From an uncultured Chitinophaga sp. (GTDB taxonomy: Bacteria; Bacteroidota; Bacteroidia; NS11-12g; UBA9320), in NCBI GenBank assembly GCA_964355045.1, contig CAYHCM010000002.1, positions 10,565 to 74,564 on the forward strand: 64,000 nucleotides of DNA, given 5' to 3'. The notes under the pieces were generated by a model that worked only from the letters and a program-made list of their open reading frames with translations, had not been told where the DNA came from and made no database searches. The stretch's first letter is position 1; each line of letters opens with the position of its first letter. This document shows, one piece after another, positions 17,521-42,206 of this stretch. Both the position numbers and the translations under genes were made by a program.

Positions 17521-17614
17521 CAGATAATTCTATTCTAATCCTGATTTTACCCTTAAAAACTTATCCCAATATTAATGTGAATTACGAAAGAGGTCTAATG
17601 AAGGCACCAAGCTA

Positions 17615-21100: not shown

Positions 21101-24100
21101 AACAGTGTATGATTTAGTAACTGCATGGGTACAACCATTGCTGGTTGTTGCTGTAAGCGTTACGTTGTAAGTACCCGCTGTCGGATAGGTATAGGTAGGG
21201 CTGGCGGTTGTGGATGTGTTTCCGTTTCCAAAATCCCAACTGTAGGTGCTTGCTCCGGTTGAATTATTTGTGAATGTGCTTGTAAATCCATTACATACAT
21301 TGGCCGCTGAAAAATCAGCTACCGGTTTTGGATGTATTGTTACCGTATTGGTGGTTGAATCCAAACATCCGTTTGTGGATGTTATTTTTAATTTCACGGT
21401 ATAGGTTCCGGCCGTAGCATATGTGTTGGTTGGATTGGTGGCGGTGGATGTATTTGCGTCTCCAAATGTCCATTGGTAAACCGAGGCTCCGCTGGATGAA
21501 TTGTTAAACGACGTGCTTACTCCCAGGCAATTGTTCGATACACTGAACGTGGCTTTAGGTTTGCTAAACACATTCACGGTTTTTATAAGTGAATCTTTGC
21601 AACCAAACGTGGAGGTGGACACTAATTTTGCACTGTAGGTTCCTGCCGTTGCATACGTTTTGGTAAAGGATGTGTTGGTTGTGGTACTCGTACTTGCATC
21701 ACCAAACGACCATGCTAAGGATGCAAATCCGGTAGATGTATTGGTGAACGTGGTGGCTGCAGGGAAACATTCATTGGTAGCGCTGAAGTTTGGCGTTGAA
21801 CGGATATTAAATACTACGACCTTGGTGATGGAATCTTTGAATCCACCGGATAAGGATATTCTGAATTTAACATTATAGGTTCCCGCACTGCTGTAATGAT
21901 GGCGTGCATGCTGAACATTGGAGGTGGTGGCATCTCCAAAATTCCAATGGAACTGAAGGCCTGATCCTGATCCGCAAGCATATACGGTATTGTCAACAAA
22001 TATCACTGAATCTCCCTGACATTTTAAGCTAAATGTAAATGATGGCGATGGGGTGGTGGCCACGATTACCGATTTAATCGCCGAATCTTTACAGCCCTGA
22101 TTACTGGTGGCTGTTAAAGTTACGGTATAGGTTCCGCTGCTTGTATATGTTTTGGTTGGTACACTCGAGGTACTGCCGGTTCCGTCTCCAAATTTCCACA
22201 GGTACGTAAGGGAGCCTGATGAAATGGTGGATGAATTGGTTACCGGCATCGGATCGTTAAAACAATGGTTCGATGCGGTATAACTAACCGTTGGTTTTGC
22301 ATTGGTACGAACTTTTATCGCATTGCTTGTTCCGCTTGGGCAACCTGTGCTTCCTGCCAATCTCTGGAAATACGTAAGTGTGGATAAGGTGCCTGAGCTA
22401 TAGGTGGATGAGGTGGCTCCGCTTATATTTGTCCAGGTGCTGCTGTCGGTAGATGACTGCCACTGGAACGTGTATGTTCCCGGTCCGCCTGTTGCCGCTG
22501 CCGTCTGGGTAAAGGCTGCTGGGGCTGTTCCAGCACATATCGTCTGGCCTGAGGCTATAGATCCGCCGGTAATGGGTGAATACAATTTTATTTTTACACC
22601 ATTGGTGCCCGCAGATGGACATGAACCTGAGAATACCAGATTTCTGTAATACGTTACACTTGTTACATTGGTCGGGGTAAAGCTGCTTGAGGTTTGTCCC
22701 GAAATATTACTCCACGTAGCTGAATCGGATGATTGCTGCCATTGGTAGGTATATCCGCCTACTGCACCTGTGGGGGTAGTACTGAATCCTAAGGCTGAAC
22801 CGGTGCCATTGAAACAAATGGTTTGGGCTGTACCAATAACGCCCGGATTTAATAAGGTTCCCACTGTGATAGTTACCGTATTGCTCACTGCCGGCCCGCA
22901 TGCAGCCGTAGTTGTGGATCGGCGGTAATACGTCGTGGTGGTTAATGTGCCCGGCTGATAATCCTGGCCGGTGGCTCCTGATATGTTAGTGAAGTTTACA
23001 TTGTCAGTGGATACCTGCCACTGGTTGGTGTAAGGTGAGATACTTCCTGAAGGTGCTGTGGTAGTGGTAATCAGGGCCGGAGTTGTATTATAACAAATCG
23101 TTTGGCTGGCACCGATAACACCGGCTGAAAGGGTTTTTAATATAAATATAGATTTATCGGCACTATCGGTACAGCCACTGTTGGATGTAGATATAATCCT
23201 TACGGAATACGACGCTGAAGTAGTGGTATATTTATGAGTTGTGGTATTACCCGTACCTGAAGTTGCATCTCCAAATTTCCATGAATTAGCTGTAATGGTT
23301 CCGCCTGAAACGGTAGAAGCGCTTGTAAAGTTTACAAAATTGCCACCGCATGTATCCGTATAGGTAAAGTTAGCTTTTGGCAATGGATTCAGCGTAACAT
23401 TCAAGGTATTGGAGCCATTGCATGATAAAGCGGTAATAGTTTCGGTTACACTTACCGATGCGGTACCGACTGTTCCCCATTTTACGGAAATAGAATTGGT
23501 GTTTTGTCCGCTTTGTATGGTTCCCCCTGTTACTGACCAGCTATAGCTCATACCTGTTTTCAGGGTAGTAGAATACGTGGCAGTTGACTTTTCACAAGCA
23601 GGGTTTGTACCTGATGCCACCGGAGTAGGCTTGGGCACAATGGTAATAGTTGACATGCTTGTATCATTTCCTCTCTGCTCTTCACCAGTTAAGTTGGTAT
23701 ATGCTTTAATAGTGTATGTACCACCTGCAAGCGTATTTATATTATCAGGGAAGGTATAGGATGCAGTAGCTCCCGCTGCCAAAGGCCCGGCAAAATTTTG
23801 GGTTGAGGTAACGGTAGCAGAACCGGTAACTTTTAAAGTAACTGAAATATTTGACTGGCTTAGGAATCCATAATTCTTTATAGAAACCGTTACCTGGGTA
23901 TTGGAGGCGGCACAAGTTGTATTTGTTGGAGATACAATGGCTGAAACTCCGGCATCCTTGCCAAAAGCTTCGAAAGATCCAATGGTCGGAGTCGTTGAAT
24001 TTCTGGTAATATATACAAAATCTTTGGCAATACCTGTGAGAGACATACCTTTATAGGCAACTTCGGCAGTTCCTGATTTTGACGGATCCAGATTTAAATC

Positions 24101-27100
24101 TCCAATCGCCCTGTTTACAAACATATCGGGATTAATTTCGCCTCCTGAAGTACCGCTTGGTATATATGGTGAATTCAAATCTGATCTTGAATTAGCCTTC
24201 CAGTCGCTGAAGTTATAATCCGTAATATTCCAAAGTGCGACAGGATAAGCGGATGAATTGCTTAGCAAATTATAATTGCTCGCATTGTTTTGCCAACCTG
24301 TTTGGAAGGTAGTAATTACATTTTGATTACCTATTGCATAATGCTTTCCTGTTCCACCTTTTCGGTCGTTCATCAATATATTACTCTTTGCATTTACAAT
24401 AGAAGTATATGAGGAAGTAACATAATTATTGCCCCTTAAATAGCCGAAAGATGAATGAATACCAGATGTGGCAGTGCCACCAATATATACAGAATTAAAA
24501 AATGAATTTATGGTAAAGTTGCCTGATGTGGACTGCCAGATACCAATGTACATCGGGCTATTGGTTTGGCCGGTTCCAAGTGAAATCTGGTTGTTCTGCA
24601 ATGTAATTGAATTCTGTGCTGTAGCAATCATAATACCGCAAGCAACTGCCGGAGCATTAATATTGGTGTTGGTTGATAAATTTATTATATCATATACTCG
24701 GTTATTAGAAAATATTGTATTGTTTGCAAAATTTACAAAAAGACCGGTTACAATGGTAGGCGCAGCTCCAGTATTATTTGCTCTTATGTTATAAACTGTA
24801 TTATTTGCAACCCGTCCACCTAAAACAATAGCGTAAATTCCTATGCCTGTAGCGGCAACAATTGTATTGGTGGCAAAAACTGAGGTAATGTTGGAGCAGT
24901 TTACCGAGCAATTAAATACTTTATTGTTAGTTATTGTTGGAATGGAAGTTCCAGAATTTCCAAATACAATTCCTCTAAAGCTAATACCTGATTCAACACC
25001 GTAGGATGTCATATTAGCCACTACATTACTATCAATTAACACTGTTGGAGCATTTAATGACGTCATTTGTGCCTGGATACCAATGATACTGCCGGTTCCG
25101 GAATTTTGTATGCTGTTAGCGACTGTAGTTGAACCAACTAAGTTCTTTCTTATAGTGCACAGTCCGTTAGTCGGGAATATACATACAATGTTTTCAGCAA
25201 CACCCTGCATAGGACAATTAATTCCCTGTATGGTATTGCCAATAATATTGCAATTACCGTTTGACTGATGGGTAAGAATAGAGTGCTGAGCTCCCCCTGA
25301 AAGAACAATTGAATTGATATCGGTTGGGTGTCCGATTAGGTTATTTAAAATATTTACACTAACAGAATTTTGACTTATTATTCCGAAAAATGTAGCACCG
25401 GTTCCTATATTCGTTCTTCGGATGTTTTGAATAACATTGTTACTTATTGTTGAAGGCATAAATAATGATCCGGAGGTAAATGAAATGGCCCTGAAATCAA
25501 CATTTGCATTATTAACCCAGGGAGCGCCGCCGCAATTCTTAGCTGAACCACCTATATAATTTCCGGAGATAAGATGGCCGCCTGATTGATATTGAACATC
25601 CATAAAAATAGAATATTGTAAAGCAAAGGCAGGAATTGACAGGCTACGGTAAAAACTATTGCCTGAAATATTCCAGTTATTTCCATTTCCTACATTGGCA
25701 ATCCAAATTCCATATTGTGTAAAATTAGTTATTTCATTTCCCATAATAACGTTGGCCGTATTTTCTTTGCCAACATCACCCAAACTGTAAATATCAACAG
25801 CCGGAACTCCAAGAGGGAAGACACCTGTTCTGTTATGCTCTATCAAACAATTTGATACTGTATCTCTGCTGTTTCCGAGCATTTTGGTTGAAGTACTGAA
25901 TTGTATAACACCTGATGTTATTGAAGAATTGCCACTCTCAATATTCAGATTGTTCAATCTGTTATCTGTAGCTTCATTGATAAATAAAAATACCTGACCG
26001 GCGGTATTGGTGTTTCTGAACCTAAGTTTTCTATCAGTGCCGCCACCGTTAAAATCAGGAATCCCTGAAAACTTAACCCTGTCGGCTCCATCTAATCTGA
26101 TCATGCTTCCTACATTACCTGAAATTAAACGTTCTGTGTTTGTTAATGAATCGGGACGGATAGTTAAAGTATAAGTACCTCCTCCGTTATCACCCAATTG
26201 ATTTAAGCCGAACGTACCGGGTTCATCAGTATTTGAAGAAATTACGGCAGTAACATCTCCACCTAACGAAACGGTATTTAAATATTCGAACAAACCACCT
26301 GCTCCTGTAAGGGTTGGATAGGTTTTACCCGTTCCTACTCTCAGTTTACTTCCTGCTGCTAATGCCCCAACTAATTTATAGGTTAGTGGAATGGCAGGAT
26401 GTGTAGTAATTGTATTGACATCGGAAGCAACGGCATAAAGACCGTTTGACCTTAAATTGCCTGCATTATCCTGAGCTATTATATAATATCTGATGGTATC
26501 ACCAGTGGCTACTCCACCCATTGTTGAATAATCAATGGCAAAGGTTGCAACTGCATTTTTATTGCTGCCCGTTAAGGCTGTGGCTGCAGAAGAGTACCAG
26601 GTTGATCCGTTTTTTGAGAAATAGATTCTTGGAATATTAGTTCCGCTCATTGGAATTCCTGCATTATCAGTAATGGATACATTGCTTACAGTTCGTGAAC
26701 CGGAAGTTGTACTTGCATTATTTAACAAATTGAACGTAATAACAGGAGCAATTATATCTGAAGATAATGAGAAATTGCCTGAATGGGCACCTATATCTAC
26801 AGGTGTTCTGCCCGATCTTATATTTCCATCAAAGTCATCCGTTGTAGGAACATCCATAGCTCCGTTACCTTCGGCCGTATTGGTACCTGATAAATGTAAA
26901 TTAACAGCTAAGGCATTTCCCGTAGGATTAACAAAACCCGGATCACCACTTCCACTATTCAAATCAAAACCTGTAGCCGATTGCCAGCTTGCTGCTCCGC
27001 TTAAATTGGTATAATCGGTAGCGGTTGATATAATATTTCCTGTTATCCCTCCCGTACCATTGGCATATAAAATATTATTATTTGAGAATATCAGGCTTGT

Positions 27101-30100
27101 TGACTGTAATTGCATTGCGAAGTTTTTGCCGGATGCTGAACCGGTGTTGCTTACCGCATTATGGAAAATATTATTCTTTATCACTACCCGTGTAGTGGTT
27201 GCTGAAAATGCAACAGGCAACGAAAACGCGGAAGTTACTGAAGCACCTGAACCGGGTGAACCGCCAAGATAAACGCTGTTATGATAATAATATGCAGAAG
27301 TACTATTGGTTATTAGCTGCTGGATTCCATAAACATTATATGGACCCGAAAAAGCATTACCTGCAGAATCAATACCAATTCGAATCATATTATTTTCGTA
27401 GGTTCCTGAGTATCCATAATTTAATATTCCAATCATAGTTCCGGCACCGCTTGTGCTTAATTTTAAACTGTGAATATTATTGCGTGAAACCAGATAAGGA
27501 GTATTGGAAGAAGCTGCAAGAGAAACAAGTCCTATAACATTAACTGCATTGGCTGTAGCTGTATTAGTATGATTTAAGGAATGAATTGTATTGCCTGTAA
27601 ATGAAATAAATGTTCCACCACCTGAGTAGCATAACCCTATAATACCTGCAGAATATTGAGTACCTGTGGAAGTAGTCATTGAATTTAAACTGGAAATGGT
27701 ATTGTTATGTATTTTTAAACCCGAACCACTCGATATATACAATCCCATCATTTGAACAGTTGCTGGTGTGGAACTTACATATTGTAAATCAGAAATTATA
27801 TTATCAGAACATTCCGAATTTCCAAGGTTTCCATTCATCAGCAAGCCAATTATTCCGGATGCTGTAGATACCGAATTGGGATTGGCAGTACTTGAAACCA
27901 AGCCTGAAATTATATTTCCCTTTGTTTTATTTAATCCTGCAAGGGTATATAGACCAACCATACAATGGTTCCCGACATTTCTCAAATTCTTTAAATTTTT
28001 AACGGTATTATTCAAAATATTTTGAACACTTCCGCCAGAACTAACTCCAATACCTACAACGGCAGCCGAAGTTGATGATCCTGAATTACTTGAAGTGGCA
28101 TTAAAATTTTGTACTGTATTATTCCTTACATTTAATTCATAGGTTGTGGTTGAAATCATAATACCTCTTACTGCAGTACTTGTATATACAGTTCCTCCGG
28201 TAGCTGTTAAATTAGAAATAATATTATTATTAACAGTTAACTTAAACGACGTAGTACTGTTTATTCCTATAAGTCCTGCATTACCGTTGGTCTGTATGCT
28301 ATTGGAGGTAGCCGCATCTCCAATATTATTTCCTGTCGTTCCTCCTACATCTACCACTCCACCGTTAATATTTATTCCTGTAAACAGGATAGTAAGTGTT
28401 CCAGTTCCTGAAAAAAGGAAATTTTGAATAGTGTTACCCTGAACCTGAACCCCATCCTGAGTACCTGCACTAAGCAAAATGCCATTAAATGCTGACATAG
28501 CTGAATTATTAAATGCTGAACCACCGCAATAAGGTTCCATACCGCCGATAAAATTACCGCTAATAGTATCATTGTTGGAAATAATCCCGGGTACAAAATT
28601 TATTGCAGTTTGAGCACTTGTAGCCGGATTTGAAGGAGTTCTGTAGAAATGATTATTTAAAATTCTCCAGTTGTTTCCACCTGAATTTGCTGCTACGGTA
28701 ATCCCAAAGGAAGTAAAATTATAAATCCTGCATTCACGAATGGTAATATTATCATTCATTAATTCAGGAAGAACGGCTGTTGGCAATTGACCAAGAGATT
28801 GGATTCCGTTGGTCATACCACTTCCATTGATGGCCCGGATATAACTTCTGATAAAGGTATTATTATCGTTACCGGTTACCATTCCGGTAGCGCTCAGTAA
28901 TATAGCTGACGTTGTTGATCCCTCAACAACGCAATTTTCAATCGTATTATTTACGGCATCATTCAATAAAGTTATAACCGGATCAGAAGTACTTGTTGTT
29001 TTAATAAAGAGAAAAGTATCTGTTGAACTTCCTCCGGTTGGCATTCCTGTAATTTTAACCCTGTCAGCACCATTCAATCGTATCATTCCACCGGTTCCTG
29101 AACCGGTAACTGCGCGTCGTGAAGCCGCCGATGGGCGGATGGTTAAGGTATAACCCGAACCACCTGTTTCTATCCACTGATTTAAAGCTACCGCACCCGT
29201 TTCAGTCATATCACTTGTAATATTTATTACTGTATTTCCCTGCAAGCCCGAATTATTTATCGCATTAAACAATCCTGCTGCACCTGTTTCGGTTAAGGTA
29301 GTATAAGTTTGCCCTGAACCAACGTCAATACTTGTTGACAACGAAGGAACAATCATATAGGTGTTTGGTGTAGTGGGATCGGTTGAAACCGAAGAAACAC
29401 TTGAAGCAATAGCATACATGGCATTTGATACCACATTACCTGCACTATCCTGAGCTAAAATATAATAACTAATTATATCTGCATTGCTAACTCCACCAAG
29501 TGTTGTAGCATTTATTGTAAAAGTCCAAACACCGTTTTGTTGGTTACCTGAAGTCAAGGAGCCTGCACCTGAATAAACCGTACCCGAGCCTTTTTTATAA
29601 TAAACCCTTGGAGCGTTTGCGGTAGTTTTTGGCATTCCAAGTCCGTTATCTATAATATTCACAGTAAATGTCCGGTCACTTGTTGAACTGGTATTGGTTA
29701 AAGGGTTCAAATTAATAATTGGAGGAAACTTATCGCCTGATTTTGTAAATGTTCCGGCATCAGCCCCAATGTCATTCGGGGTTAAACCTGAGCGTACCTG
29801 ATTATCAAAATCGTCCAATACGCTTGTAACGGTTGGGTCACCCGCACTTTCGGCAGGATTGCCTGAACTTAAATGTAAATCAACGGTTGAACTTGTTCCG
29901 TTTGGAGTAAGATAATTAGGATTAGATGATCCGCTTTGTCCGTCAAGCAGGGTTGCGCTGTTCCAGCTACTTGCTCCGGTTAGGTTTGTATATGGCGTTG
30001 TGCTAATTAAGCCGGCAACTCCCATTGTATTTGGTGTATAGATTATATTATGATTCGAAAATATCCTGCCGTTATTTGTGGTAATACTTATACCCGCATT

Positions 30101-33100
30101 ATAACCTGTACTGGTATTGAGTATATTATTATAAAAAATATTGTTTTTAATATTTACAGTTTCTGTCGGTGAACTTATGGTTCCTGTAAGTTCTATACAA
30201 GCTGAATTTGTTGTTCCGCCTGAAATTCCTGCCAGGTATATGCTGTTATTATAATAATTATTTGAATATATTGTATTTTGAAAAATACCCTTATATGTAT
30301 AAGGTCCACTTATAGCATTACCAATAGAGTCAACCCCTAAACGAATCATATTATTTTGATAGGTTGCAGTTCCTCCGTAATTATAAATACCGGTCATATT
30401 TCCGGCAGCGGAGGTAGCTAATCCAAAACTGTGAATAAAGTTATTATTAACGATTGAATAATTGCCAAACGTAGTAGCGGTAGTAAAATAAATACCTAAA
30501 ATAGTAGCTGCGGCAGAGGTATTGTAGTTATAAAAATTATAAATAGAATTGCCTGTTATATTTTTATTGGCTGAGGCTGATAAAACATAAATGCCGGTAA
30601 TAGAAGCCGGAGTAAGAGCTGTCGTGCTGCTGTTAGATGAAAAATTACGAATTTTGTTATTTTTCATATAGGTCAAAGTTGATTGAATATTAATTCCAAG
30701 AATATAGGTACCCGCATTGGCAGTGGCACTAAAATTTTCGATGGTATTATTATTAATAGTTGCAGGTAATCCGGTATTATAACTTATACCAACAATACAT
30801 GATGTTTGATTGGCAGCGGTACTGGTACTTGCAGTTGTTAGGTCACTTATAATATTATTTGTTATATCGGTAGCGCCTGAAGCGATATACATACCTTCAA
30901 TTTGAGTAGAAGCGGCAGCAGTAGAAATAAGATTTCTTATTTCATTACCATTATATACACATCCATTAGTGCCCTGATGATATATACCAATAATAGCGGC
31001 TGATGAGGTATTACTGGTGCTTGGAGAACTACTTAACAAACCATTAATTTTATTTCCTTTTATCTGGGTAATACCTGCAATATTCATAATTCCGATTACA
31101 CGGGTTTGGCCGGTAGTGGTTGTACTGCTTAACGCTTCCGAAATACTGCCTCCTACTATGTTATCTGTAATAAATTGGTTATTGGAAGACGACTGCATTA
31201 AAATTCCAATAAGCACTGCTGAAGTTGTAGAACCGGCATTGGCTGAATTGGTAACAAAATTTCGGATGATATTATTAGTAATGTACACCGAAGCGCCACC
31301 TGTATTAACAATACCCCTGATAGCTCCGGATGTACTTGTGTTATTTTGGGAAATATTGGCAATCGTATTATAACTCATTACCATATCATGGAAAGCGGAA
31401 GATGAAATGCCGATCATCGCATTATTACCTAATGAACTTATACTATTGGCAGTAGATGCATGCCCAATCGTATTTCCTTTGCCTGCTGCGCCTCCAAGTA
31501 TAAGAGATCCACCTTGAGGGTTGATACCCATAAATTGAGCCGAATTGGTTGTACTTGTAAAACTGATATTTTGAATTACATTATTTTGAACCAATGTTGG
31601 CGTACCCGGGTTACACGAAATTCTGATACCGGCCATAGTAGCCGATGAAGAACTATTAACCAGCGGAGAACCCCCACAATTGGCTAAAGTTCCTCCAATA
31701 TAATTATTGCTAATTATATTTGCTATGGAAAGTGAAGTAGTTCCCGGTAAAAAATTAATAGCCACCCAGTTTGTGCTTGTAGTACCTGCCGTAGTAGCGC
31801 TATCATAAAAACTATTATTGGTTATCGTCCATTTTTCACCATTACCTAATGAATTAACTACATTTATTCCATAATTATAGAAGGAATGAATTTCATTATC
31901 GGTAATAGTAATATTATCTGTTTGAATTAACAGGTTAGAAGTTGGTGACGATGTAATAGCCGAATATAAAAAGGAGGTAGCAGATGACCTGGTAATCAAA
32001 TTATTTGAAATTACGTTACTGTCATTTCCAAAAAACTTGTTGGAAGTTCCTAAAAAAATTGCCCCGCTTGCCGGGTTGGTATTTGATGAGCGGATATTGC
32101 AATATTTAATAGTATTGCGTATGGCATCATTCTGCAAAGTAAAAACTGTACCGCTTCCACTTGTATTCGAAAAAGATAATTCCTTTGAAGTTCCTGTTCC
32201 ACCGGGGCGACCATCAAATGTAACCCTGTAGGCGTTGTCCAAAATAAATAAGGCCGTGGCACTATTGCCGGATATTACCAAATTAGTAGCACCTGAGGCA
32301 GGCCGTATAGTAAGCTGTGGATTAGAATTGGCTGTTCCGCAAATATTTGTAGTAAATATTGGTATAGTTATAGGGAAACTTTCAACAGATGACGCATACG
32401 TGCTCTGTAATTCCAACACAACACTCCCGTTAAATCCTTTAAGTTTTAAAGAATCAGAAGCCATTTTTATAGATGAGAATGTGCCGGTAGGTCCTACGGA
32501 ATAGCTTCCGCTTAAAGGGGTTTGTGCTCCATAAAAACTTATATTGGTCAGGTTGGTATCATTGCTATGTGCTGAATCTAAGCTATATCCGGTAAATGAT
32601 TTCATGGTTAAAGCACCTTTGAGGGCAGCAGTATTTAATGTACCCATGTGTATGGTATCAGTGCCTCCTATTGCAAGGGTTCTGGTATATGATTTTGTAA
32701 ACGTTCCGGTGGTTACTCCTGATAATTGCATAGTAACAGGTATAGAGGATGTAATGCTGTTTTTACCTGAATTTTTTATTTGTACAATAAACGGATCGGC
32801 TGTAGCACCGCAAACATACGTTGGGCTTATTAAGGCTGAAATACCAACATCATTTGCATCAGCATCCAGGTTAATGGTATAATCTTCTGCTTCGCCATAG
32901 CTCAGGTCATCACATGAACCTGAATTGGTTGTAGGACAAGTACTAAAATAATACTCTGATCTAATTCTCATGCGAGTGGTACCTACGGTTACTGATGAAG
33001 GTATGGTTACATTAAAATAGGTTAAGGTAGATGAACCGTTCGGAACATTACCAACTGAATAAACACAATTTGGAGGAGACATCCATTCACCTGCATCTAA

Positions 33101-33496
33101 AAAATCGTTATCCCCGTTTAAATCAATCCATATCATCATATTTACAGGATAAGTAGGACCCGTGGTAAACCCGAATGAATAGGTTTTCCCTGCCTTTAGC
33201 GTAAACATGGGAGAACTACTCAAAAGAGTGTACTGGCCTGAGGAAGATTTACAACCACTATTTGTTGTGGTATGTGCACGATTAAATAGCGTGGTGGAGC
33301 CTAACTTAATTTCCACCGCATTTACCGACATTCCGTAAGTCGTGCAATTTCCACTTTGTCCACTATAAACAGGGGTACAATAGGGAGACTGCGCTTTGGC
33401 AATACCGCCAAATAGCGATAATAGAAAAACCGGTAACAAGGTTTTAGTAAAACTGTTTGATAAATTTTTGTTTAATTGAGTAGAATTTTTTTTCAT
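18167..33496 (-). CDS. Giant 5109-aa T9SS-secreted surface protein (adhesin-like). N- to C-terminus it has: a signal peptide; a GEVED-like N-terminal domain ('…DDLSYGEAEDYTINL'); a CARDB-like domain; three paralogous right-handed beta-helix modules of ~1000 aa each; a PKD-like domain; 3 Ig-like repeats; ~16 PKD repeats ('W.FGDG' motif); a PKD-like domain; and a type-A T9SS CTD.
   Basis: Single uninterrupted 15,330-nt ORF. Module starts 'PASGATNLVISGNSATALFILDNAYRVTFDG', 'SAASRRAVTGSGTGGMIRLNGADRVKITG' and 'DSLTNTERLISGNVGSMIRLDGADRVKFSG', with matching module ends '…LHLSSGNPAESAGDPTVTSVLDDFDNQVRSG…' and '…LHLSGTNTAEGNGAMDVPTTDDFDGNIRSG…'. C-terminal 'YPNPNKDNFTVEV…MNVYDQLGREI…AGIYSAKLVTDKGLTTILRFEVKN'. 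Confidence 0.85.
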   Translation of the reverse strand: MKKNSTQLNKNLSNSFTKTLLPVFLLSLFGGIAKAQSPYCTPVYSGQSGNCTTYGMSVNAVEIKLGSTTLFNRAHTTTNSGCKSSSGQYTLLSSSPMFTLKAGKTYSFGFTTGPTYPVNMMIWIDLNGDNDFLDAGEWMSPPNCVYSVGNVPNGSSTLTYFNVTIPSSVTVGTTRMRIRSEYYFSTCPTTNSGSCDDLSYGEAEDYTINLDADANDVGISALISPTYVCGATADPFIVQIKNSGKNSITSSIPVTMQLSGVTTGTFTKSYTRTLAIGGTDTIHMGTLNTAALKGALTMKSFTGYSLDSAHSNDTNLTNISFYGAQTPLSGSYSVGPTGTFSSIKMASDSLKLKGFNGSVVLELQSTYASSVESFPITIPIFTTNICGTANSNPQLTIRPASGATNLVISGNSATALFILDNAYRVTFDGRPGGTGTSKELSFSNTSGSGTVFTLQNDAIRNTIKYCNIRSSNTNPASGAIFLGTSNKFFGNDSNVISNNLITRSSATSFLYSAITSSPTSNLLIQTDNITITDNEIHSFYNYGINVVNSLGNGEKWTITNNSFYDSATTAGTTSTNWVAINFLPGTTSLSIANIISNNYIGGTLANCGGSPLVNSSSSATMAGIRISCNPGTPTLVQNNVIQNISFTSTTNSAQFMGINPQGGSLILGGAAGKGNTIGHASTANSISSLGNNAMIGISSSAFHDMVMSYNTIANISQNNTSTSGAIRGIVNTGGASVYITNNIIRNFVTNSANAGSTTSAVLIGILMQSSSNNQFITDNIVGGSISEALSSTTTTGQTRVIGIMNIAGITQIKGNKINGLLSSSPSTSNTSSAAIIGIYHQGTNGCVYNGNEIRNLISTAAASTQIEGMYIASGATDITNNIISDLTTASTSTAANQTSCIVGISYNTGLPATINNNTIENFSATANAGTYILGINIQSTLTYMKNNKIRNFSSNSSTTALTPASITGIYVLSASANKNITGNSIYNFYNYNTSAAATILGIYFTTATTFGNYSIVNNNFIHSFGLATSAAGNMTGIYNYGGTATYQNNMIRLGVDSIGNAISGPYTYKGIFQNTIYSNNYYNNSIYLAGISGGTTNSACIELTGTISSPTETVNIKNNIFYNNILNTSTGYNAGISITTNNGRIFSNHNIIYTPNTMGVAGLISTTPYTNLTGASSWNSATLLDGQSGSSNPNYLTPNGTSSTVDLHLSSGNPAESAGDPTVTSVLDDFDNQVRSGLTPNDIGADAGTFTKSGDKFPPIINLNPLTNTSSTSDRTFTVNIIDNGLGMPKTTANAPRVYYKKGSGTVYSGAGSLTSGNQQNGVWTFTINATTLGGVSNADIISYYILAQDSAGNVVSNAMYAIASSVSSVSTDPTTPNTYMIVPSLSTSIDVGSGQTYTTLTETGAAGLFNAINNSGLQGNTVINITSDMTETGAVALNQWIETGGSGYTLTIRPSAASRRAVTGSGTGGMIRLNGADRVKITGMPTGGSSTDTFLFIKTTSTSDPVITLLNDAVNNTIENCVVEGSTTSAILLSATGMVTGNDNNTFIRSYIRAINGSGMTNGIQSLGQLPTAVLPELMNDNITIRECRIYNFTSFGITVAANSGGNNWRILNNHFYRTPSNPATSAQTAINFVPGIISNNDTISGNFIGGMEPYCGGSAFNNSAMSAFNGILLSAGTQDGVQVQGNTIQNFLFSGTGTLTILFTGININGGVVDVGGTTGNNIGDAATSNSIQTNGNAGLIGINSTTSFKLTVNNNIISNLTATGGTVYTSTAVRGIMISTTTYELNVRNNTVQNFNATSSNSGSSTSAAVVGIGVSSGGSVQNILNNTVKNLKNLRNVGNHCMVGLYTLAGLNKTKGNIISGLVSSTANPNSVSTASGIIGLLMNGNLGNSECSDNIISDLQYVSSTPATVQMMGLYISSGSGLKIHNNTISSLNSMTTSTGTQYSAGIIGLCYSGGGTFISFTGNTIHSLNHTNTATANAVNVIGLVSLAASSNTPYLVSRNNIHSLKLSTSGAGTMIGILNYGYSGTYENNMIRIGIDSAGNAFSGPYNVYGIQQLITNSTSAYYYHNSVYLGGSPGSGASVTSAFSLPVAFSATTTRVVIKNNIFHNAVSNTGSASGKNFAMQLQSTSLIFSNNNILYANGTGGITGNIISTATDYTNLSGAASWQSATGFDLNSGSGDPGFVNPTGNALAVNLHLSGTNTAEGNGAMDVPTTDDFDGNIRSGRTPVDIGAHSGNFSLSSDIIAPVITFNLLNNASTTSGSRTVSNVSITDNAGIPMSGTNIPRIYFSKNGSTWYSSAATALTGSNKNAVATFAIDYSTMGGVATGDTIRYYIIAQDNAGNLRSNGLYAVASDVNTITTHPAIPLTYKLVGALAAGSKLRVGTGKTYPTLTGAGGLFEYLNTVSLGGDVTAVISSNTDEPGTFGLNQLGDNGGGTYTLTIRPDSLTNTERLISGNVGSMIRLDGADRVKFSGIPDFNGGGTDRKLRFRNTNTAGQVFLFINEATDNRLNNLNIESGNSSITSGVIQFSTSTKMLGNSRDTVSNCLIEHNRTGVFPLGVPAVDIYSLGDVGKENTANVIMGNEITNFTQYGIWIANVGNGNNWNISGNSFYRSLSIPAFALQYSIFMDVQYQSGGHLISGNYIGGSAKNCGGAPWVNNANVDFRAISFTSGSLFMPSTISNNVIQNIRRTNIGTGATFFGIISQNSVSVNILNNLIGHPTDINSIVLSGGAQHSILTHQSNGNCNIIGNTIQGINCPMQGVAENIVCIFPTNGLCTIRKNLVGSTTVANSIQNSGTGSIIGIQAQMTSLNAPTVLIDSNVVANMTSYGVESGISFRGIVFGNSGTSIPTITNNKVFNCSVNCSNITSVFATNTIVAATGIGIYAIVLGGRVANNTVYNIRANNTGAAPTIVTGLFVNFANNTIFSNNRVYDIINLSTNTNINAPAVACGIMIATAQNSITLQNNQISLGTGQTNSPMYIGIWQSTSGNFTINSFFNSVYIGGTATSGIHSSFGYLRGNNYVTSSYTSIVNAKSNILMNDRKGGTGKHYAIGNQNVITTFQTGWQNNASNYNLLSNSSAYPVALWNITDYNFSDWKANSRSDLNSPYIPSGTSGGEINPDMFVNRAIGDLNLDPSKSGTAEVAYKGMSLTGIAKDFVYITRNSTTPTIGSFEAFGKDAGVSAIVSPTNTTCAASNTQVTVSIKNYGFLSQSNISVTLKVTGSATVTSTQNFAGPLAAGATASYTFPDNINTLAGGTYTIKAYTNLTGEEQRGNDTSMSTITIVPKPTPVASGTNPACEKSTATYSTTLKTGMSYSWSVTGGTIQSGQNTNSISVKWGTVGTASVSVTETITALSCNGSNTLNVTLNPLPKANFTYTDTCGGNFVNFTSASTVSGGTITANSWKFGDATSGTGNTTTHKYTTTSASYSVRIISTSNSGCTDSADKSIFILKTLSAGVIGASQTICYNTTPALITTTTAPSGSISPYTNQWQVSTDNVNFTNISGATGQDYQPGTLTTTTYYRRSTTTAACGPAVSNTVTITVGTLLNPGVIGTAQTICFNGTGSALGFSTTPTGAVGGYTYQWQQSSDSATWSNISGQTSSSFTPTNVTSVTYYRNLVFSGSCPSAGTNGVKIKLYSPITGGSIASGQTICAGTAPAAFTQTAAATGGPGTYTFQWQSSTDSSTWTNISGATSSTYSSGTLSTLTYFQRLAGSTGCPSGTSNAIKVRTNAKPTVSYTASNHCFNDPMPVTNSSTISSGSLTYLWKFGDGTGSTSSVPTKTYTSSGTYTVTLTATSNQGCKDSAIKSVIVATTPSPSFTFSLKCQGDSVIFVDNTVYACGSGSGLQFHWNFGDATTSNVQHARHHYSSAGTYNVKFRISLSGGFKDSITKVVVFNIRSTPNFSATNECFPAATTFTNTSTGFASLAWSFGDASTSTTTNTSFTKTYATAGTYSAKLVSTSTFGCKDSLIKTVNVFSKPKATFSVSNNCLGVSTSFNNSSSGASVYQWTFGDANTSTATNPTNTYATAGTYTVKLKITSTNGCLDSTTNTVTIHPKPVADFSAANVCNGFTSTFTNNSTGASTYSWDFGNGNTSTTASPTYTYPTAGTYNVTLTATTSNGCTHAVTKSYTVNVSPKANFSGSNVCLGSSITFSNSSTGAATNSWNFGDATTSTAAAPTKTYATSGNFTVKLVVTNTFGCKDSTTKSVTIFAKPVPAFTANNQCLGTAVSFTNQSTGATSTIWVFGDGKSSAANSPNYTYATAGTYTVKLITTSVNGCKDSLSKTVTVYARPVVSFTASPDPICRGGLMNFTNTTTNGSTYQWTFGNGNTSTATSPTNIYNTEGNYNVKLVANSVNACKDSANKTVTVWPRPKASFNVNNGCTSDNLGFATNSVGAVGHEWTFGDGNSSTVANPAKGYANAGTYNIQLIVTSINGCKDTSRSTVTVHPRASVSFTNPSNFCLGLSTTFTNTTTLSAGTMTHQWSFGDGNTSSNTSPTNTYKAGGNYTVTLTTTTDKGCQNRNTSSILVYGKPAANFNAGNACAGATVTFNNTTIGGTTYAWDFGNSATSTLTSPTQSYTNAGTYSVKLTATNANNCTDAVTKQIIIYANPVANFTASDRCIGTAIAFTNTSGGASDVSWQFGDGSSSNSFNPSYSYTSPGSYNVTLNIKSVYGCQATVSKSVTVFAAPKAAFSINDNGQCINGNNFIYTDNSTIASGTYNRAWTLGDGSTSTATNATRTYASAGNYTVRLVITSNNGCKDSTNNPVMVYPKPVANFNINNSSQCINSNLFAFTDASTISDGSITRVWNLGDGSSQGGISILKQYSATGTYTVTLGVTSDFGCTDVISKTVTVNSSPAAAFTINNETQCLNSNNFGFTNTSPGASGFTNTWRFGDGTNVSTINASRTYAAAGNYVVTLRLSNASGCRDSSQYTVKVLPNPAAIIVSGPNTALNGSTKIYSVTATPGSTYNWVATNGVVLSNGASMIQVKWNTTGIAGTVTVTETGANGCQGTPANYNVALSTTGINTINRNAFAASLYPNPNKDNFTVEVSTGDMVTMNVYDQLGREILSGYRFSSRITISDHNLPAGIYSAKLVTDKGLTTILRFEVKN
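18650..22800. repeat. Tandem ~255-bp coding repeats (PKD-domain array) inside the giant gene.
   Basis: About 16 successive ~85-aa units each containing '[WF].FGDG/FGNG…T…Y…G.Y.V.L…N..GC.D'; they produce the many stop-free antisense ORFs listed in the ORF track. Confidence 0.7.
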
Positions 33497-36658: not shown

Positions 36659-37171
36659 TCAGTCTTCCAAATACCCAATAGGATTAAGATAAAACATTTT
36701 TTTCCATCCTTGATGGTCATGGTCAATAAGCCAAAAGTAAGGAAAAAGCGTGGTGATGGTATAATGCAAATGAGGAGGTTTTCCAGCCGCATTGCCGCTG
36801 CTGCCAACACTTGCAATTATTTCATTTTTGCCAGCACATGAAAATTTGGACGTTTTTATTTCTTTTAAATGGGCATAATAATGAAACCGCCATTTGGGTC
36901 CTAAAATAATAATCACATTGCCGCCCATGCTTAATTTTCCGCAATAAATTACCAAACCATTTACGGATGAAACCACATGCGTTCCTTCTTTGGCAAATAT
37001 ATCAACCCCTTTATGGGTAACCGATTTTCCCCAGGGGTAATACCAAAATGATTGTGGATGGTAACTTGATTTGGTGGCTCCGGTGACCGGCATTATTAAA
37101 TTTTGAGGAATTAAAAAACCAAGGATAAAAATGGAAAGCAGCGCTAATGTTATTTTTTTGCGAAGAGTCAT
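36659..37171 (-). CDS. M23-family (LytM-like) metallopeptidase with a signal/anchor sequence.
   Basis: 'HKGVDIFAKEGTHVVSSVNGLVIYCG…GNVIIILGPKWRFHYYAHL…GSSGNAAGKPPHLHY' contains the M23 HxxxD … HxH zinc motifs. Confidence 0.8.
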   Translation of the reverse strand: MTLRKKITLALLSIFILGFLIPQNLIMPVTGATKSSYHPQSFWYYPWGKSVTHKGVDIFAKEGTHVVSSVNGLVIYCGKLSMGGNVIIILGPKWRFHYYAHLKEIKTSKFSCAGKNEIIASVGSSGNAAGKPPHLHYTITTLFPYFWLIDHDHQGWKKMFYLNPIGYLED

Positions 37172-37175
37172 CAGC

Positions 37176-37565
37176 CTATCTTGCTAATACAACGGTACCA
37201 TTATACTTATATCCATTCAATTGTCGCTCTGCCACCTGATCATACAAATCCATTGTTATCTGAAAAACATAGGCATCCATTTGACAAATCTGTCCTTTAT
37301 ATGTGCCATCCCAACACTTAGTAATATCTTTTGATTCAAACAATAATTCACCCCATCTATTATAAATTTTCATTTCAAATTTTACTATTTGAGAACTATC
37401 TGATTTTTGAACACAGAATTTCTCAGGAAGGTGTGCATCAGGTGTAAAAACACTTGGAATATTTATTTTTATTGTGATTGAATCGCTTGATGGCGATGGC
37501 TTAGCTATTGAAACGCTTATTGAAATAAAAAGTGTAAAAACAATAATAAATGAATATGATTTCAT
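37176..37565 (-). CDS. Mini-protein (129 aa): signal peptide plus a type-B T9SS C-terminal domain (gliding-motility CTD, TIGR04131-like) with almost no passenger domain.
   Basis: 'PSVFTPDAHLPEKFCVQ…KFEMKIYNRWGELLFES…CWDGTYKG…AYVFQI…NGYKYNGTVVLAR' matches the type-B CTD pattern (P.VFTPNGDG…IfNRWG.lVF…WDG…G.Y.Y…G.v.L.R). Confidence 0.65.
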   Translation of the reverse strand: MKSYSFIIVFTLFISISVSIAKPSPSSDSITIKINIPSVFTPDAHLPEKFCVQKSDSSQIVKFEMKIYNRWGELLFESKDITKCWDGTYKGQICQMDAYVFQITMDLYDQVAERQLNGYKYNGTVVLAR

Positions 37566-37644
37566 AATGTATCAGATTAAAATTTTACAAGTTTACTTTG
37601 AAAAATTAGAACAAAGACAATAGCCTGTTTTTTTTGACCGCGTC

Positions 37645-38040
37645 TCATTTTAATCTAATTAAAGCTACCGCTCCATTATAGCTTCGTTTTTTTACTTTTT
37701 CAGTAGCCAAGGCATTATAATATTCCAGATCAAGTATATAAAAATAGGTTCCTTCGGGAGCTTTACCATTTTTTGTTCTTCCATCCCAACATTTTAAAAT
37801 ATCAAATGAAGTAAAAACTAATTCCCCCCAGCGATTGTAAATTACCAATTTGAATTTTAAGATTTCTGAACTATCCAATTTTTGAACACAAAAACGATCG
37901 GAAAATCCTTCATCTTCGGCGGTAAAAATGGTTGGAATGCTAATTTTCGGTACAATGGTATCGCTTGATGGTATTGATTGAGCGATTAAATTATCAAAGC
38001 AAAATAGTGTTAAAATAAATAGAAGTATTATTGGTTTCAT
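37645..38040 (-). CDS. Mini-protein (131 aa), tandem paralog of 37176-37565: signal peptide plus type-B T9SS CTD.
   Basis: 'PTIFTAEDEGFSDRFCVQ…KFKLVIYNRWGELVFTS…CWDGRTKNGKAPEGTYFYIL…RSYNGAVALIRLK'. Confidence 0.65.
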   Translation of the reverse strand: MKPIILLFILTLFCFDNLIAQSIPSSDTIVPKISIPTIFTAEDEGFSDRFCVQKLDSSEILKFKLVIYNRWGELVFTSFDILKCWDGRTKNGKAPEGTYFYILDLEYYNALATEKVKKRSYNGAVALIRLK

Positions 38041-38061: not shown

Positions 38062-38463
38062 TTACAGATTAACGCCATTACTTTGAACATATTTTCTGAA
38101 ATTATCAAGATGGATAATGCAAAATGAATGGTCAATTTGTTTAAGTGTTTCAAAAGTGGCAGAATCTGTTATGCCTTCATACCGGGATGTTCTTGAATAA
38201 TTAAAAAGGTTTTTATAATCGCGCCAAGCGGTTCGCGAAATTTTCATTTTCGAATTCAATCGGTCAGGGTTTACACTATGTTCAATTTCAAAATGCGTTT
38301 CTCCGATTTCATAATTCTTTTTGGATGCCAACGCTTTTAAATAGTGAATGGCTATATAAAACAAAACGGTAATTTTCCAATCACAAAAATGCCCGGGGAA
38401 TTCAGAGTTTATACAATCATGAAATTTTTGGTTATGATTTGCCTGATTTAAATACTGTTGCAT
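38062..38463 (-). CDS. Hypothetical cytoplasmic protein (133 aa); no recognised domain.
   Basis: ORF only; no signal peptide; 8-nt gap to the upstream ORF suggests co-transcription. Confidence 0.4.
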   Translation of the reverse strand: MQQYLNQANHNQKFHDCINSEFPGHFCDWKITVLFYIAIHYLKALASKKNYEIGETHFEIEHSVNPDRLNSKMKISRTAWRDYKNLFNYSRTSRYEGITDSATFETLKQIDHSFCIIHLDNFRKYVQSNGVNL

Positions 38464-38471
38464 ATTTACTT

Positions 38472-38972
38472 TTAATCAAGCTTTATTGGCTCGTCAACTT
38501 TTATTTTATCAATAAGTTCATTGGGTACAAATTGAAAATAGACGGGATATTTAGTTGCTATATCTAACAAATCAAATTTATCGAAGAAATCAAATATTTT
38601 GTTTCTGTTGTCAATATCGTCTTGTTTTAAAACGATGGAATAATGAAGGTCGTTCAGGTTTGTTTTGGTTCTATAGGCAATTTTAATAATCTCAGAATTG
38701 TGTTTTAAAAAGCCTTTAACCATGCGGTCAATAATCTCCCTAATTTGGCTGTCTATATTTGATGAAAGTTTGAAAATACTATTAATAGGAGCTTCCAAAC
38801 TATCTTCAATTTTTTTTGAAAGGTCGGTTTTTTCACCAATCTTCAATAATTCATAACTTCTATCAACTTCTTCTTTAAACTCTTCTAAATTGGTTTGAAG
38901 CAAATATAGTATGGCCTGTAACTGCCCCACTTTGTGGTCAGCTCCGGTTTTTATAACTTTATTGCTTTTCAT
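38472..38972 (-). CDS. Hypothetical cytoplasmic protein (166 aa); no recognised domain.
   Basis: ORF only; charged, helical-looking sequence; first gene of a two-gene cassette. Confidence 0.4.
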   Translation of the reverse strand: MKSNKVIKTGADHKVGQLQAILYLLQTNLEEFKEEVDRSYELLKIGEKTDLSKKIEDSLEAPINSIFKLSSNIDSQIREIIDRMVKGFLKHNSEIIKIAYRTKTNLNDLHYSIVLKQDDIDNRNKIFDFFDKFDLLDIATKYPVYFQFVPNELIDKIKVDEPIKLD

Positions 38973-39030: not shown

Positions 39031-40128
39031 CTACAAATTTTTAACCTTAAACTCAATCTTCGTAATCCTCGTATTGCTTTTATCTACCGATTTAAATTCT
39101 ATTTTGTATATGTGGTTATCCGCAGTTTTTAAAATATAAATATTCTTTTTATAAACTTCATATCGTTTATTAACGGTATTTAAATAACGCCATTTATTCC
39201 CTATAAAGTCTATTGAGTTAGCATAAATATATATTTCAGCATCCCAAAATGTAATGTCATCGAATGCTTTTACAGTATCGCTGGCTATTTGCCTTCCTGT
39301 TGTATTTAGCAAAATCATGTCGGTCCAGCTATAGGCAGTGTCCACTATTATTCCATCTTTTATTACCGGACTATACAGGCCGTATTGAGTAAAAGCTAAA
39401 TCCCAATCAGCCGAAGGAGGTTCAATAATTACCTCTTTTGCCTTTGCTTCAAGCAACACATATATATTATTGTAATCGCCTTTTTTTTCAATTTTCAAGG
39501 TGTCGCCGTAAATATCATTCAACATTCCATATTTTATTCTATAATAATTATCGGTACACCCCAAAATTTCAATTTTTCGGTATCCAAATTCGTCCACACT
39601 ATTTAAATAACCCAAATCAATAACATATGTGTAACCATACGATTTAGGGTTCGTAAATGAAAAATCGCCCCAGGCTCCCATTGCCGTTAAGGCTTTCCCG
39701 TCTTTCATAATATCCGATTGCCAGTTTGTAATATTTCGGGTTTTTATAGAATCTGAAAATTTACCGGTATATCTAGCTATTCGCATATTTTTGGCTGTGT
39801 TCAAATAAAAATAATATTTATCTTTTTGGGCACAAAGCCTTAAATCCCAATCGGTAATTTTATGGGACGAAATTATTTTTTTCTTGCTCAGGCTGTAATA
39901 ATGGGTAGCCATGTTATCGGTATTAATTTCGATGGTTTGTAATTCCGGGTCGGGTATTACAGGCTGCGGTTTCACTGGCTCCACACAGGACGATAAGGGG
40001 AGAATAAAGAGAAAGGTAAACACGGGAAAAAGAGTAAACACGGAGACACGGAGCAAAAGGAGTTTCACAGAGATTTTACCTTGATTCTCTAACCAATTTA
40101 TTTTTAAATGCTTTTCTTTAATTTTCAT
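39031..40128 (-). CDS. HmuY-like lipoprotein (apparent tandem HmuY-type domains). The true start is probably an internal GTG/ATG near 40068, giving 'KLLLLRVSVFTLFPVFTFLFILPLSSC' (lipobox).
   Basis: Two 'DWDLR/DWDLAF' segments ('HYYSLSKKKIISSHKITDWDLRL…YYFYLN' and 'SADWDLAFTQYGLY') resemble the HmuY 'W.YFSF…DWD.A' core; lies immediately downstream of a TonB-dependent receptor; the first ~20 codons of the ORF are translated GA-rich repeat. Confidence 0.45.
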   Translation of the reverse strand: MKIKEKHLKINWLENQGKISVKLLLLRVSVFTLFPVFTFLFILPLSSCVEPVKPQPVIPDPELQTIEINTDNMATHYYSLSKKKIISSHKITDWDLRLCAQKDKYYFYLNTAKNMRIARYTGKFSDSIKTRNITNWQSDIMKDGKALTAMGAWGDFSFTNPKSYGYTYVIDLGYLNSVDEFGYRKIEILGCTDNYYRIKYGMLNDIYGDTLKIEKKGDYNNIYVLLEAKAKEVIIEPPSADWDLAFTQYGLYSPVIKDGIIVDTAYSWTDMILLNTTGRQIASDTVKAFDDITFWDAEIYIYANSIDFIGNKWRYLNTVNKRYEVYKKNIYILKTADNHIYKIEFKSVDKSNTRITKIEFKVKNL

Positions 40129-40193: not shown

Positions 40194-42206
40194 TTAAATA
40201 TTAATATTTAATTCAATAAAATAATTTCTACCATTCATTAAGGCATTTGTAAAAGGCTGCTGTTGTTGGCCCCCTGCCGAGTCGGTAGTAAGTAAAAAAC
40301 TGTCACTATTTTTTACATTAAAAATATTTTTTATGCCACCTCTTAGCATAATGGTTTTTTTGCTAAATGATTTTTCCAACACGGCATCGGCCAGATTAAA
40401 ACTATGATTAAAAAAAGTTTGAGGGCCGTTTACTGCATCCAATGCCATGTATCCCCTTTGCCCTGTATGTTTAATAATCGCACAAAAACTAAGCCCTGAG
40501 TTAGGTATTTTAAACGTAAAGTTTGAGTAAACTTCGGTATAAAATAATTGCTTATCGAACAAATTGGCAAAGTGATTATTACCTGCAAGAATTCCTCTGA
40601 AATTTAAATCCCAGTAGGTGCTTTGATAGGCAATATTTATGCGGGTGCCAATCGTTTTCTTCTCGCTCAGGTTTTTATGAACGAGCCTCCCGGGGTCGTT
40701 TTTATCCGAAATTAATTCGATCCCATCTTTAAAAAAATAATTAAAAAAACCGGGTTCTACGGTTATGTTATCTTCTTTAACAAAAATTTTATCTTTTTTA
40801 AATAATAACGAATAATGGTATGTTACGGCACTTTCGTCGGTCAGGTTCAGGTTTCGTTTTATGCTATAGCCATTGGTAAGATAGGTGGCAAACATTTGGT
40901 CGAACGTGGGAGCTTTGGTGCTGCGGGCTACCATAAATTTAAAACTTACCACGGGCGTAAATTTAAAATTCATTTTAGCTTCATACAGCGGTTTGGTTTT
41001 ATACTTTGAACTATATGGCAATCTAAATGCCCCGAACAACAACATGTTTTTTATACCCGAATACCGTAATATAAAAAACAAACTGGTGGTTGAATTTGAT
41101 TGGATAACATTATTCACTGTATGTTTATACCTATCCATGGTACTTGCAAAATCAAAGCCTGCATGATAATTGACCTGCTTGTTTTTATCGCCTTGCGAAA
41201 TTACACATCGGCCATAAACCAAAGTGTAGCGTATGGTATCGTTCAAGGCCGTATCGTTCACGGCTTTTTGTTGGGCAGTAAAAACATCTTTAAGAAATAA
41301 GGTATTATATCGCCGATAATTCATCCATTGCAAATCGCCCTGAAGGTTATATTTTCGGGTCAATTTACCTTTGATTCCAATGTAGATTGAATTATTATTG
41401 GTTTTAGTTTGGCGGTCGTAAGCCCTTACCGTTTGTGGATATGGATATCCAAGCTGGGTTTTATTTTCATAAAGATTATTGAACCCGATGGAAACATCCA
41501 TGTATTGCAAAATTTTATGAGAAAAATAAATATGATTATTAACCCGGGTATAAGGCAGCCATTGCAATACGCGGCCCGAGTCATTGCCCTGCCTGCCTGC
41601 AAAGGCATCTACCGAGGATGAAAACCGAAAGAAGTTTTCGGTAGTTCGCCGGCCAAGATTTACATTGCTATAAAAACTTCCCGGATTATAGCCTTGAAAA
41701 CGCAAAGATGGTTTATACACTTTTTCCTGTGTAGTTTTTGAAATTAAATTGATAACACCCATAATAGCCGAACTGCCGTAAGCCACGCCCTGCGGATTTT
41801 CTATTATTTCTATTCGGCTGATATTATCAACCGGAATTTGTTGCAAATCCATTTCATCAAACTGAACTGAGCGAAAAGGCAAACCATCTAATAAAATCAA
41901 AATATTTCCCTTAGTACTTCCATGCCATTGAAATTGCCAGCCCTTAATGGCATCATAATTAAAAATACCCCCCGTTTCCAATATCAAAATATCTTTGAGA
42001 TTATTGGCACCCCGCAATCGTATTTCGGCTTCGGTAATTATCCGGGTTACATCGGCGAGTTCACTTTGTTTCACTTTTTTAAATTGCCCGGTTTCCACCA
42101 TGGTGTTTTCCTTGTTTTTGCTTTGGGCAAAAATCAGGCTTGGAAAAAGTATAAAAAAACAAAGGATTAAGCGGGTCAACAAATCAATAACGCATTTATC
42201 CTCCAA
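40194..42206 (-). CDS. TonB-dependent outer-membrane receptor (HmuR-like context).
   Basis: Signal peptide; plug-domain region '…LDGLPFRSVQFDEMDLQQIPVDNISRIEIIENPQGVAYGSSAIMGVINLISK'; ~670-aa beta-barrel. Confidence 0.75.
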   Translation of the reverse strand: MEDKCVIDLLTRLILCFFILFPSLIFAQSKNKENTMVETGQFKKVKQSELADVTRIITEAEIRLRGANNLKDILILETGGIFNYDAIKGWQFQWHGSTKGNILILLDGLPFRSVQFDEMDLQQIPVDNISRIEIIENPQGVAYGSSAIMGVINLISKTTQEKVYKPSLRFQGYNPGSFYSNVNLGRRTTENFFRFSSSVDAFAGRQGNDSGRVLQWLPYTRVNNHIYFSHKILQYMDVSIGFNNLYENKTQLGYPYPQTVRAYDRQTKTNNNSIYIGIKGKLTRKYNLQGDLQWMNYRRYNTLFLKDVFTAQQKAVNDTALNDTIRYTLVYGRCVISQGDKNKQVNYHAGFDFASTMDRYKHTVNNVIQSNSTTSLFFILRYSGIKNMLLFGAFRLPYSSKYKTKPLYEAKMNFKFTPVVSFKFMVARSTKAPTFDQMFATYLTNGYSIKRNLNLTDESAVTYHYSLLFKKDKIFVKEDNITVEPGFFNYFFKDGIELISDKNDPGRLVHKNLSEKKTIGTRINIAYQSTYWDLNFRGILAGNNHFANLFDKQLFYTEVYSNFTFKIPNSGLSFCAIIKHTGQRGYMALDAVNGPQTFFNHSFNLADAVLEKSFSKKTIMLRGGIKNIFNVKNSDSFLLTTDSAGGQQQQPFTNALMNGRNYFIELNINI

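Follow-up and report, generated by a model that had tools for sequence, protein, structure and literature searches.

A tandem pair of predicted cargo-less type-B T9SS sorting-domain proteins in an uncultured Chitinophaga sp. and the recurrence of their architecture in Bacteroidota

Type-B C-terminal domains (CTDs) of type IX secretion system (T9SS) cargo rely on PorP/SprF-like shuttles instead of PorV, are probably uncleaved, and anchor their proteins to PorP/SprF-like barrels (PMC10202324, PMC9143113). Orphan type-B CTDs can be served by an unlinked shuttle, and in predicted complexes cognate pairs reached an ipTM above 0.8 (PMC12618676). These signals are poorly understood, and the minimal secretion-competent unit is debated: GFP fusions reportedly could not be secreted with just the final 100 residues of a type-B CTD, more than 200 being needed (PMC10202324, PMC12618676). 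In F. johnsoniae, secretion of a SprB-CTD fusion needed all five conserved type-B motifs (PMC12618676), and SprB CTD motif mutants were made but not secreted (PMC12618676). The same report states that the structure of a type-B CTD had yet to be determined (PMC12618676). Reviews count very small proteins among the T9SS effectors (PMC10202324).

The closest described systems each share part of their build with the gene pair analyzed here, which we call A and B. Canonical type-B cargo (SprB and Fjoh_3952 of F. johnsoniae, GhpA of Aureispira) has the same CTD and a signal peptide and shares the YNRWG, WDG, and G-x-V-x-L-x-R blocks, but it carries a passenger (the complete matched ORFs in our GTDB scan have 388–1952 aa), whereas A and B have none and their loop motif is degenerate. 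PG1035 of P. gingivalis is a type-B CTD protein kept uncleaved on a PorP-type barrel (PMC9143113); it is non-essential and strain-variable, and has been speculated to act as a protective cap for PorP (PMC9143113). PG1035 is about 50 kDa with an N-terminal region, whereas A and B are bare CTDs. F. johnsoniae Fjoh_0547 has 112 aa and consists, like A and B, of a T9SS CTD (of type A or type B) and little else (PMC7712824). Unlike what we propose for A and B, Fjoh_0547 was reportedly still secreted when sprA or porV was mutated (PMC7712824). Lastly, P. gingivalis PorA is a small CTD protein without an enzymatic passenger that acts as a regulator rather than an effector (PMC7712824), but its 246 aa include a FimH-like domain at the N-terminus, it binds PorV through its CTD (the type-A route), and it is attached to A-LPS (PMC7712824). 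Both the domain family and small CTD proteins were thus already known, and what is new in A and B is an architecture without any passenger. A full-text literature search of limited scope returned no description of cargo-less type-B CTD proteins as a class.

Genes A (37645–38040, 131 aa) and B (37176–37565, 129 aa) are adjacent on the minus strand of the window, by which we mean the whole 64,000-nucleotide stretch of DNA analyzed. They are separated by 79 nt (37566..37644, minus strand) lacking an exact Bacteroidota -7 motif (TAnnTTTG), and no exact promoter motif was found directly upstream of either gene. Compared end to end, the proteins share 44% identity (E 6e-37), in keeping with the sequence-only reading, which had described two adjacent paralogs of one architecture: a signal peptide, a short linker, and a CTD. 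Both N-termini begin with K/R followed by a hydrophobic stretch, and Sec signal peptides were scored from this charged n-region and hydrophobic stretch with a hydropathy heuristic, together with the AlphaFold2 model, which placed a helix at residues 3–16. The signal peptide of A spans residues 1–20, with probable cleavage between LIA and QS, and that of B is probably cleaved between SIA and KP. A linker or pre-strand of 12–13 residues (QSIPSSDTIVPKI in A) leads into the CTD, so the linker that the earlier reading had proposed comes to about 12 residues. The CTD begins at residue 33/34 and runs to the last residues (about 33–129 in A). It occupies the extreme C-terminus, where the terminal ..NGxVxLxR of A and B aligns with the C-termini of long cargo. 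The mature proteins would be ~110 residues long and have no passenger domain.

Profile searches placed both proteins in the type-B family, as the sequence-only reading had claimed. A and B scored 40.3 and 41.3 bits against TIGR04131, which at a curated cut-off of 35 is a small margin of 5–6 bits, and 62.3 and 40.6 bits against PF13585 (CHU_C; curated cut-off 27). These family scores lie far beyond chance and identify the domain, at the profile level, as a genuine type-B T9SS sorting domain. The profile matches end at position 73–74 of 85/86, and the terminal G-x-V-x-L-x-R strand is still visible for both proteins in the family alignment. In a set of 24 short members to which A and B belong, R70, G72, W85, and G87 were invariant and W71, F76, Y99, and G123 nearly so, and the blocks F-x-I-YNRWG-x-x-VF, WDG, G-x-Y-x-Y, and G-x-V-x-L-x-R were intact in A and B. 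Six sequences had both Cys51 and Cys84, two had Cys84 only, and none had Cys51 only; this co-occurrence suggests a candidate disulfide.

One defining motif departed from the family pattern. Where many relatives have FTPNGDGVNDxF, the family alignment has FTAEDEGFSDRF in A and FTPDAHLPEKF in B, so that the NGDGxND-type loop (PNGDGVNDxF in relatives) is degenerate in both A (AEDEGFSDRF) and B (PDAHLPEKF). The degenerate segments lie on the minus strand at 37891..37917 in A (residues 42–50, EDEGFSDRF) and 37416..37439 in B (residues 43–50, DAHLPEKF), and the alignment confirmed this replacement, which had been noticed from the sequence. What the sequence-only reading observed held in all its details, the strand being left unstated there. 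The loop was also degenerate in several relatives and varied in both length and sequence among B-type alleles (VAGQITIEKF in locus L001, AGHTPNEKF in P0003, E-KGKF in P0005). Many other short members retained a canonical NGDGVND (P0008, P0017, P0020, P0022, P0025), and loss of the loop is therefore not a defining trait of cargo-less CTDs. Overall, A and B fit the type-B CTD family on most defining features and depart from it in the loop motif.

An AlphaFold2 model built from the 24-sequence alignment (mean pLDDT 86.4) comprised the signal helix, a low-confidence linker, and a β-sandwich. The modelled domain is an Ig-like β-sandwich comparable to T9SS CTDs. A Foldseek search of the model against the PDB gave generic Ig-like matches only, and the PDB searches turned up no type-B CTD structure for direct comparison. 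The only clear match of the family profile among PDB entries was Aureispira GhpA (9flp chain A, residues 5815–5884; E 1.7e-13), the other six having E values of 0.08 or worse.

A profile built from A, B, and a single relative was searched exhaustively with HMMER against 1.84 billion cluster representatives, yielding 47,690 matches at E ≤ 1e-3. The survey for short CTD-only ORFs that the sequence-only reading had suggested showed the architecture to recur: among the 150 best representatives of clusters at 50% identity, at least 27 were complete proteins of 117–153 aa with a signal-peptide-like N-terminus and only the domain. Other short entries had no signal peptide and are apparently pieces of long proteins. 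By this count the cargo-less architecture is no peculiarity of the window locus and recurs in many Bacteroidota. Source names of short members included, for example, "gliding motility-associated-like protein" (JGI/IMG). Long type-B cargo (P0015, P0032, and P0014 among others) aligned from about profile position 19–34, where the mature N-terminus of A lies or shortly past it, and the segment that follows the signal peptide in the short proteins (xSxDTIxxxIxIP) resembles the strand preceding the CTD in long cargo. Because homology to long cargo starts near the mature N-terminus and extends to this pre-strand, the whole mature short protein is an extended CTD. Two further proteins, P0027 (227 aa) and P0056 (236 aa), contain only a signal peptide and a tandem of two type-B-CTD-like modules, and are thus the fused equivalent of the adjacent genes in the window.

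Narrower searches returned few short forms. When A was the query of a word-index homolog search, nothing was recovered beyond A and a single relative at 87%. A scan of GTDB species with a pattern for the close family gave 80 loci in which L003 was the sole short protein and the other complete matched ORFs were 388–1952 aa, a few loci being cut by contig ends; this pattern scan shows how close the family is to ordinary type-B CTDs and is no census of short forms. In a neighbor-joining tree of the CTD region, A, B, and P0003–P0006 clustered together, and two further groups also contained short proteins exclusively. Bootstrap values for the all-short groups were 29%, 32%, and 29%, with 77% for B, P0003, and P0005. 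Given these weak bootstraps we do not claim monophyly for any all-short group. That the other short proteins are scattered among long ones suggests, and is suggestive only of, several independent origins. Shared synteny is better evidence than the tree that the window-like group is a real lineage.

The sequence-only reading had left room for A and B being N-terminally truncated pseudogenes with a frameshifted passenger domain upstream. Their ORFs are intact. A starts 21 nt past the stop of an intact 133-aa gene, the gap between A and B is 79 nt, and in loci L170 and L084 the CTD-only gene starts 5–14 nt past the stop of an intact HmuY-like gene; these intergenic gaps leave no room for a frameshifted passenger. 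Comparison of A with a diverged intact allele in L001 gave a dS of 0.28, a dN of 0.074, and an omega of 0.27, which indicates purifying selection on A at the codon level. The corresponding ungapped dN/dS for B was discarded for a 2-codon indel in the variable loop. Relatives at 39–49% identity hold the same length and the same chromosomal slot. On this genomic evidence, A and B are complete cargo-less proteins and not truncated pseudogenes.

L001 itself is a contig of 2.7 kb and 3.8x coverage from a sibling sample. Its DNA is 100% identical to window positions 39800–37897, covering the 3′ part of the HmuY-like gene, the two genes that precede A, and the first ~48 codons of A. Against window positions 37896–37329, where L001 ends, identity falls to 73–93%, and positions 40195–39800 are diverged with gaps. 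This mosaic suggests strain-level recombination or a cassette sweep with a breakpoint inside gene A, and a chimeric low-coverage assembly is also conceivable.

The host evidently has a T9SS, an indirect conclusion drawn from two window proteins of 5109 and 583 aa with type-A CTDs (TIGR04183, 40.8 and 51.3 bits). The larger is a minus-strand ORF (18167–33496) with GEVED and many PKD domains and the type-A CTD at its end, and the smaller (13518–15269) likewise ends in its type-A CTD. Between them, on the plus strand, a 121-aa ORF (17615–17980) matches only the C-terminal quarter (positions 316–416 of 419) of an IS5-family transposase profile and is probably a truncated insertion-sequence remnant, judging by the extent of the match; the ~1.8 kb upstream of it (15745–17614) contain no ORF of 110 aa or more. 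The window held no core T9SS gene, and PorP/SprF (PF11751) was absent from the part of the window ORFs that was scanned for Pfam families. Nor was a PorP/SprF gene seen next to any short member. As a control, PorP_SprF lay directly downstream in only 3/78 evaluable long relatives, so a missing adjacent porP/sprF is uninformative about the short proteins, and we rejected this absence as one of their distinguishing marks because the test has no power.

We consider it about an even bet (probability roughly 0.5) that A and B are functional proteins, each a Sec signal peptide and a type-B domain without a passenger, which we infer are handled as type-B substrates. After Sec export and cleavage of the signal peptide, a domain of roughly 110 residues would be treated like other type-B substrates, passing the SprA/Sov translocon and being collected by a PorP/SprF-type outer-membrane shuttle. 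If, like other type-B CTDs, it is uncleaved, the domain would stay on the shuttle or be released. In the former case a bare CTD would end up filling a PorP/SprF-type barrel, akin to the cap role speculated for PG1035; the alternative product would be a small free protein at the surface or in the extracellular space. The hypervariable loop that stands in place of NGDGxND could tune the choice of shuttle. In favor of this explanation are the profile cut-offs passed, a mature protein that is all CTD, the presence of a T9SS, the omega of 0.27, the recurrence in 27/150 representatives, persistence at 39–49% identity, and the literature on type-B shuttles. Export of A and B is argued against by the degeneracy of one motif that SprB requires, by the report that ~100 residues are too short, and by the lack of a shuttle gene among the window ORFs scanned; the small TIGR04131 margin also weighs against the explanation.

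The motif and length objections also feed the main rival, in which the bare CTDs are periplasmic decoys or regulators, exported by Sec and left untranslocated, that compete with type-B cargo for shuttles or for the translocon. Such competition would tune type-B secretion or the loading of gliding adhesins. Both A and B have a degenerate motif-A-like loop, and SprB CTD motif mutants go unsecreted (PMC12618676); a bare ~100 aa reportedly does not suffice for secretion (PMC10202324), and with PorA a small CTD protein is already known to act in signalling (PMC7712824). Yet many cargo-less members keep the canonical NGDGVND, so that degeneracy does not define the class, the YNRWG, WDG, G-Y-Y, and G-V-L-R blocks are intact, and no locus examined showed linkage to T9SS regulatory or structural genes. 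We regard the decoy role as improbable, if worth keeping in view. A broader and still more speculative proposal is that cargo-less CTDs form a dedicated class of PorP/SprF ligands that, by occupying or capping particular shuttle paralogs, with specificity set by the loop, controls the loading of type-B cargo or gliding adhesins.

The neighborhood of the pair was examined for functional partners. On the minus strand the order is a TonB-dependent receptor (40194–42206), a HmuY-like lipoprotein (39031–40128), a cassette of two genes of 166 and 133 aa (38062..38972), A, B, and an M23 metallopeptidase (36659..37171, 170 aa; PF01551, 65.8 bits) that starts 4 nt after B. The sequence-only reading was right about the single-strand order of cassette, A, B, and M23 gene, but the importance it attached to this context did not hold up, since the context proved largely incidental. 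The receptor and HmuY backbone upstream was conserved in L170 and L084, and in L172 and L173 it was present without CTD-only genes. L170/L171 have the order HmuY, CTD-only, M23. L084 has HmuY, CTD-only, and a convergent metallophosphoesterase, without M23. L003 has lipoproteins, CTD-only, and M23, followed by a convergent metallophosphoesterase, DUF4249, and a receptor, without an adjacent HmuY. Other short members of the wider family were found in unrelated neighborhoods. The HmuY-like gene encodes 365 aa in the window and 276 aa in L001 (169–999), with other homologs at 329–376 aa, and the length gap between window and L001 sits in the diverged N-terminal region.

A gap of 8 nt separates the two cassette genes, and ahead of them lie two TAnnTTTG motifs (39027 and 38990). 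The 166-aa gene had no family match, the 133-aa gene had a sub-threshold HEPN match (16.9 bits; cut-off 22), and PADLOC returned nothing significant for the cassette. Because it is missing from the relatives (L170, L084, L003) and has TAnnTTTG motifs of its own, we interpret the cassette as an insertion, and it may be a mobile toxin-antitoxin-like module. At the same slot L172 (7092–8178), a more distant relative, has no cassette or CTD-only genes; in their place it carries an OmdA/DUF8412 gene and a ParE/RelB toxin-antitoxin pair, and the position downstream of the HmuY-like gene seems to be a hot spot where small accessory modules settle. Gene order across these loci indicates that the CTD-only genes are accessory occupants of a variable slot and not fixed partners of the uptake genes or the peptidase.

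Ranked below the decoy idea, and in our view unlikely, is an accessory role for A and B in uptake by the TonB-dependent receptor and HmuY-like protein, for example as a co-transcribed secreted or surface ligand-binding partner. The tight 5–14 nt spacing behind the HmuY-like stop in L170 and L084 would fit such a role, as would the same order in the window with the cassette inserted and the absence of an exact promoter motif directly ahead of A or B. The HmuY orthologs of L172 and L173 (57% and 48% identity), however, belong to receptor-HmuY pairs without a CTD-only gene, L003 has a CTD-only gene without an adjacent HmuY, other window-like short members occur in unrelated contexts, and in the window the cassette with its own promoter motifs parts A from HmuY. 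HmuY was accordingly rejected as an obligate partner: its presence in L170 and L084 and not in L172 and L173 looks like clade synteny around a variable slot.

We also weighed whether A and B serve the M23 peptidase as a trans-acting sorting tag or an inhibitor, carrying the CTD-less peptidase through the T9SS or keeping it from it. The 4-nt gap between B and the M23 gene and the repeated adjacency in L003 and L170/L171 would agree with this, but the peptidase is widespread in Bacteroidota: it has 3,713 homologs, the best 120 of the 3,713 are 64–85% identical, and among those listed some are named from Tenacibaculum, Zobellia, and Flavobacterium. Moreover, 80 metagenome loci encoding M23 orthologs contained neither a CTD ORF nor a HmuY gene, L084 has a CTD-only gene without M23, and other short members lack any M23 neighbor. 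A general association between M23 and the CTD genes was rejected on the 0/80 count, and a partnership in the window is very doubtful. Equally far-fetched, and largely refuted, is that A and B are functionless leftovers of a longer type-B cargo gene that lost its passenger by deletion, since although the pre-strand likeness of xSxDTIxxxIxIP to the last strand before the CTD in long cargo is consistent with an origin by passenger deletion, both ORFs are intact with signal peptides, omega between A alleles is 0.27, relatives at 39–49% identity keep length and slot, and 27 independent cluster representatives share the architecture.

Proteins consisting of a bare signal peptide and domain point to a ~110-residue unit, short conserved pre-strand included, that is self-sufficient in evolution. 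Cargo-less proteins also lend themselves, just as they are, to use as minimal substrates in structural work and shuttle-pairing assays. If they prove to be merely small secreted proteins, the finding would be a useful but modest point of annotation. If they act as caps or competitors, mimicry of the secretion tag would constitute a regulatory layer on type IX secretion and gliding.
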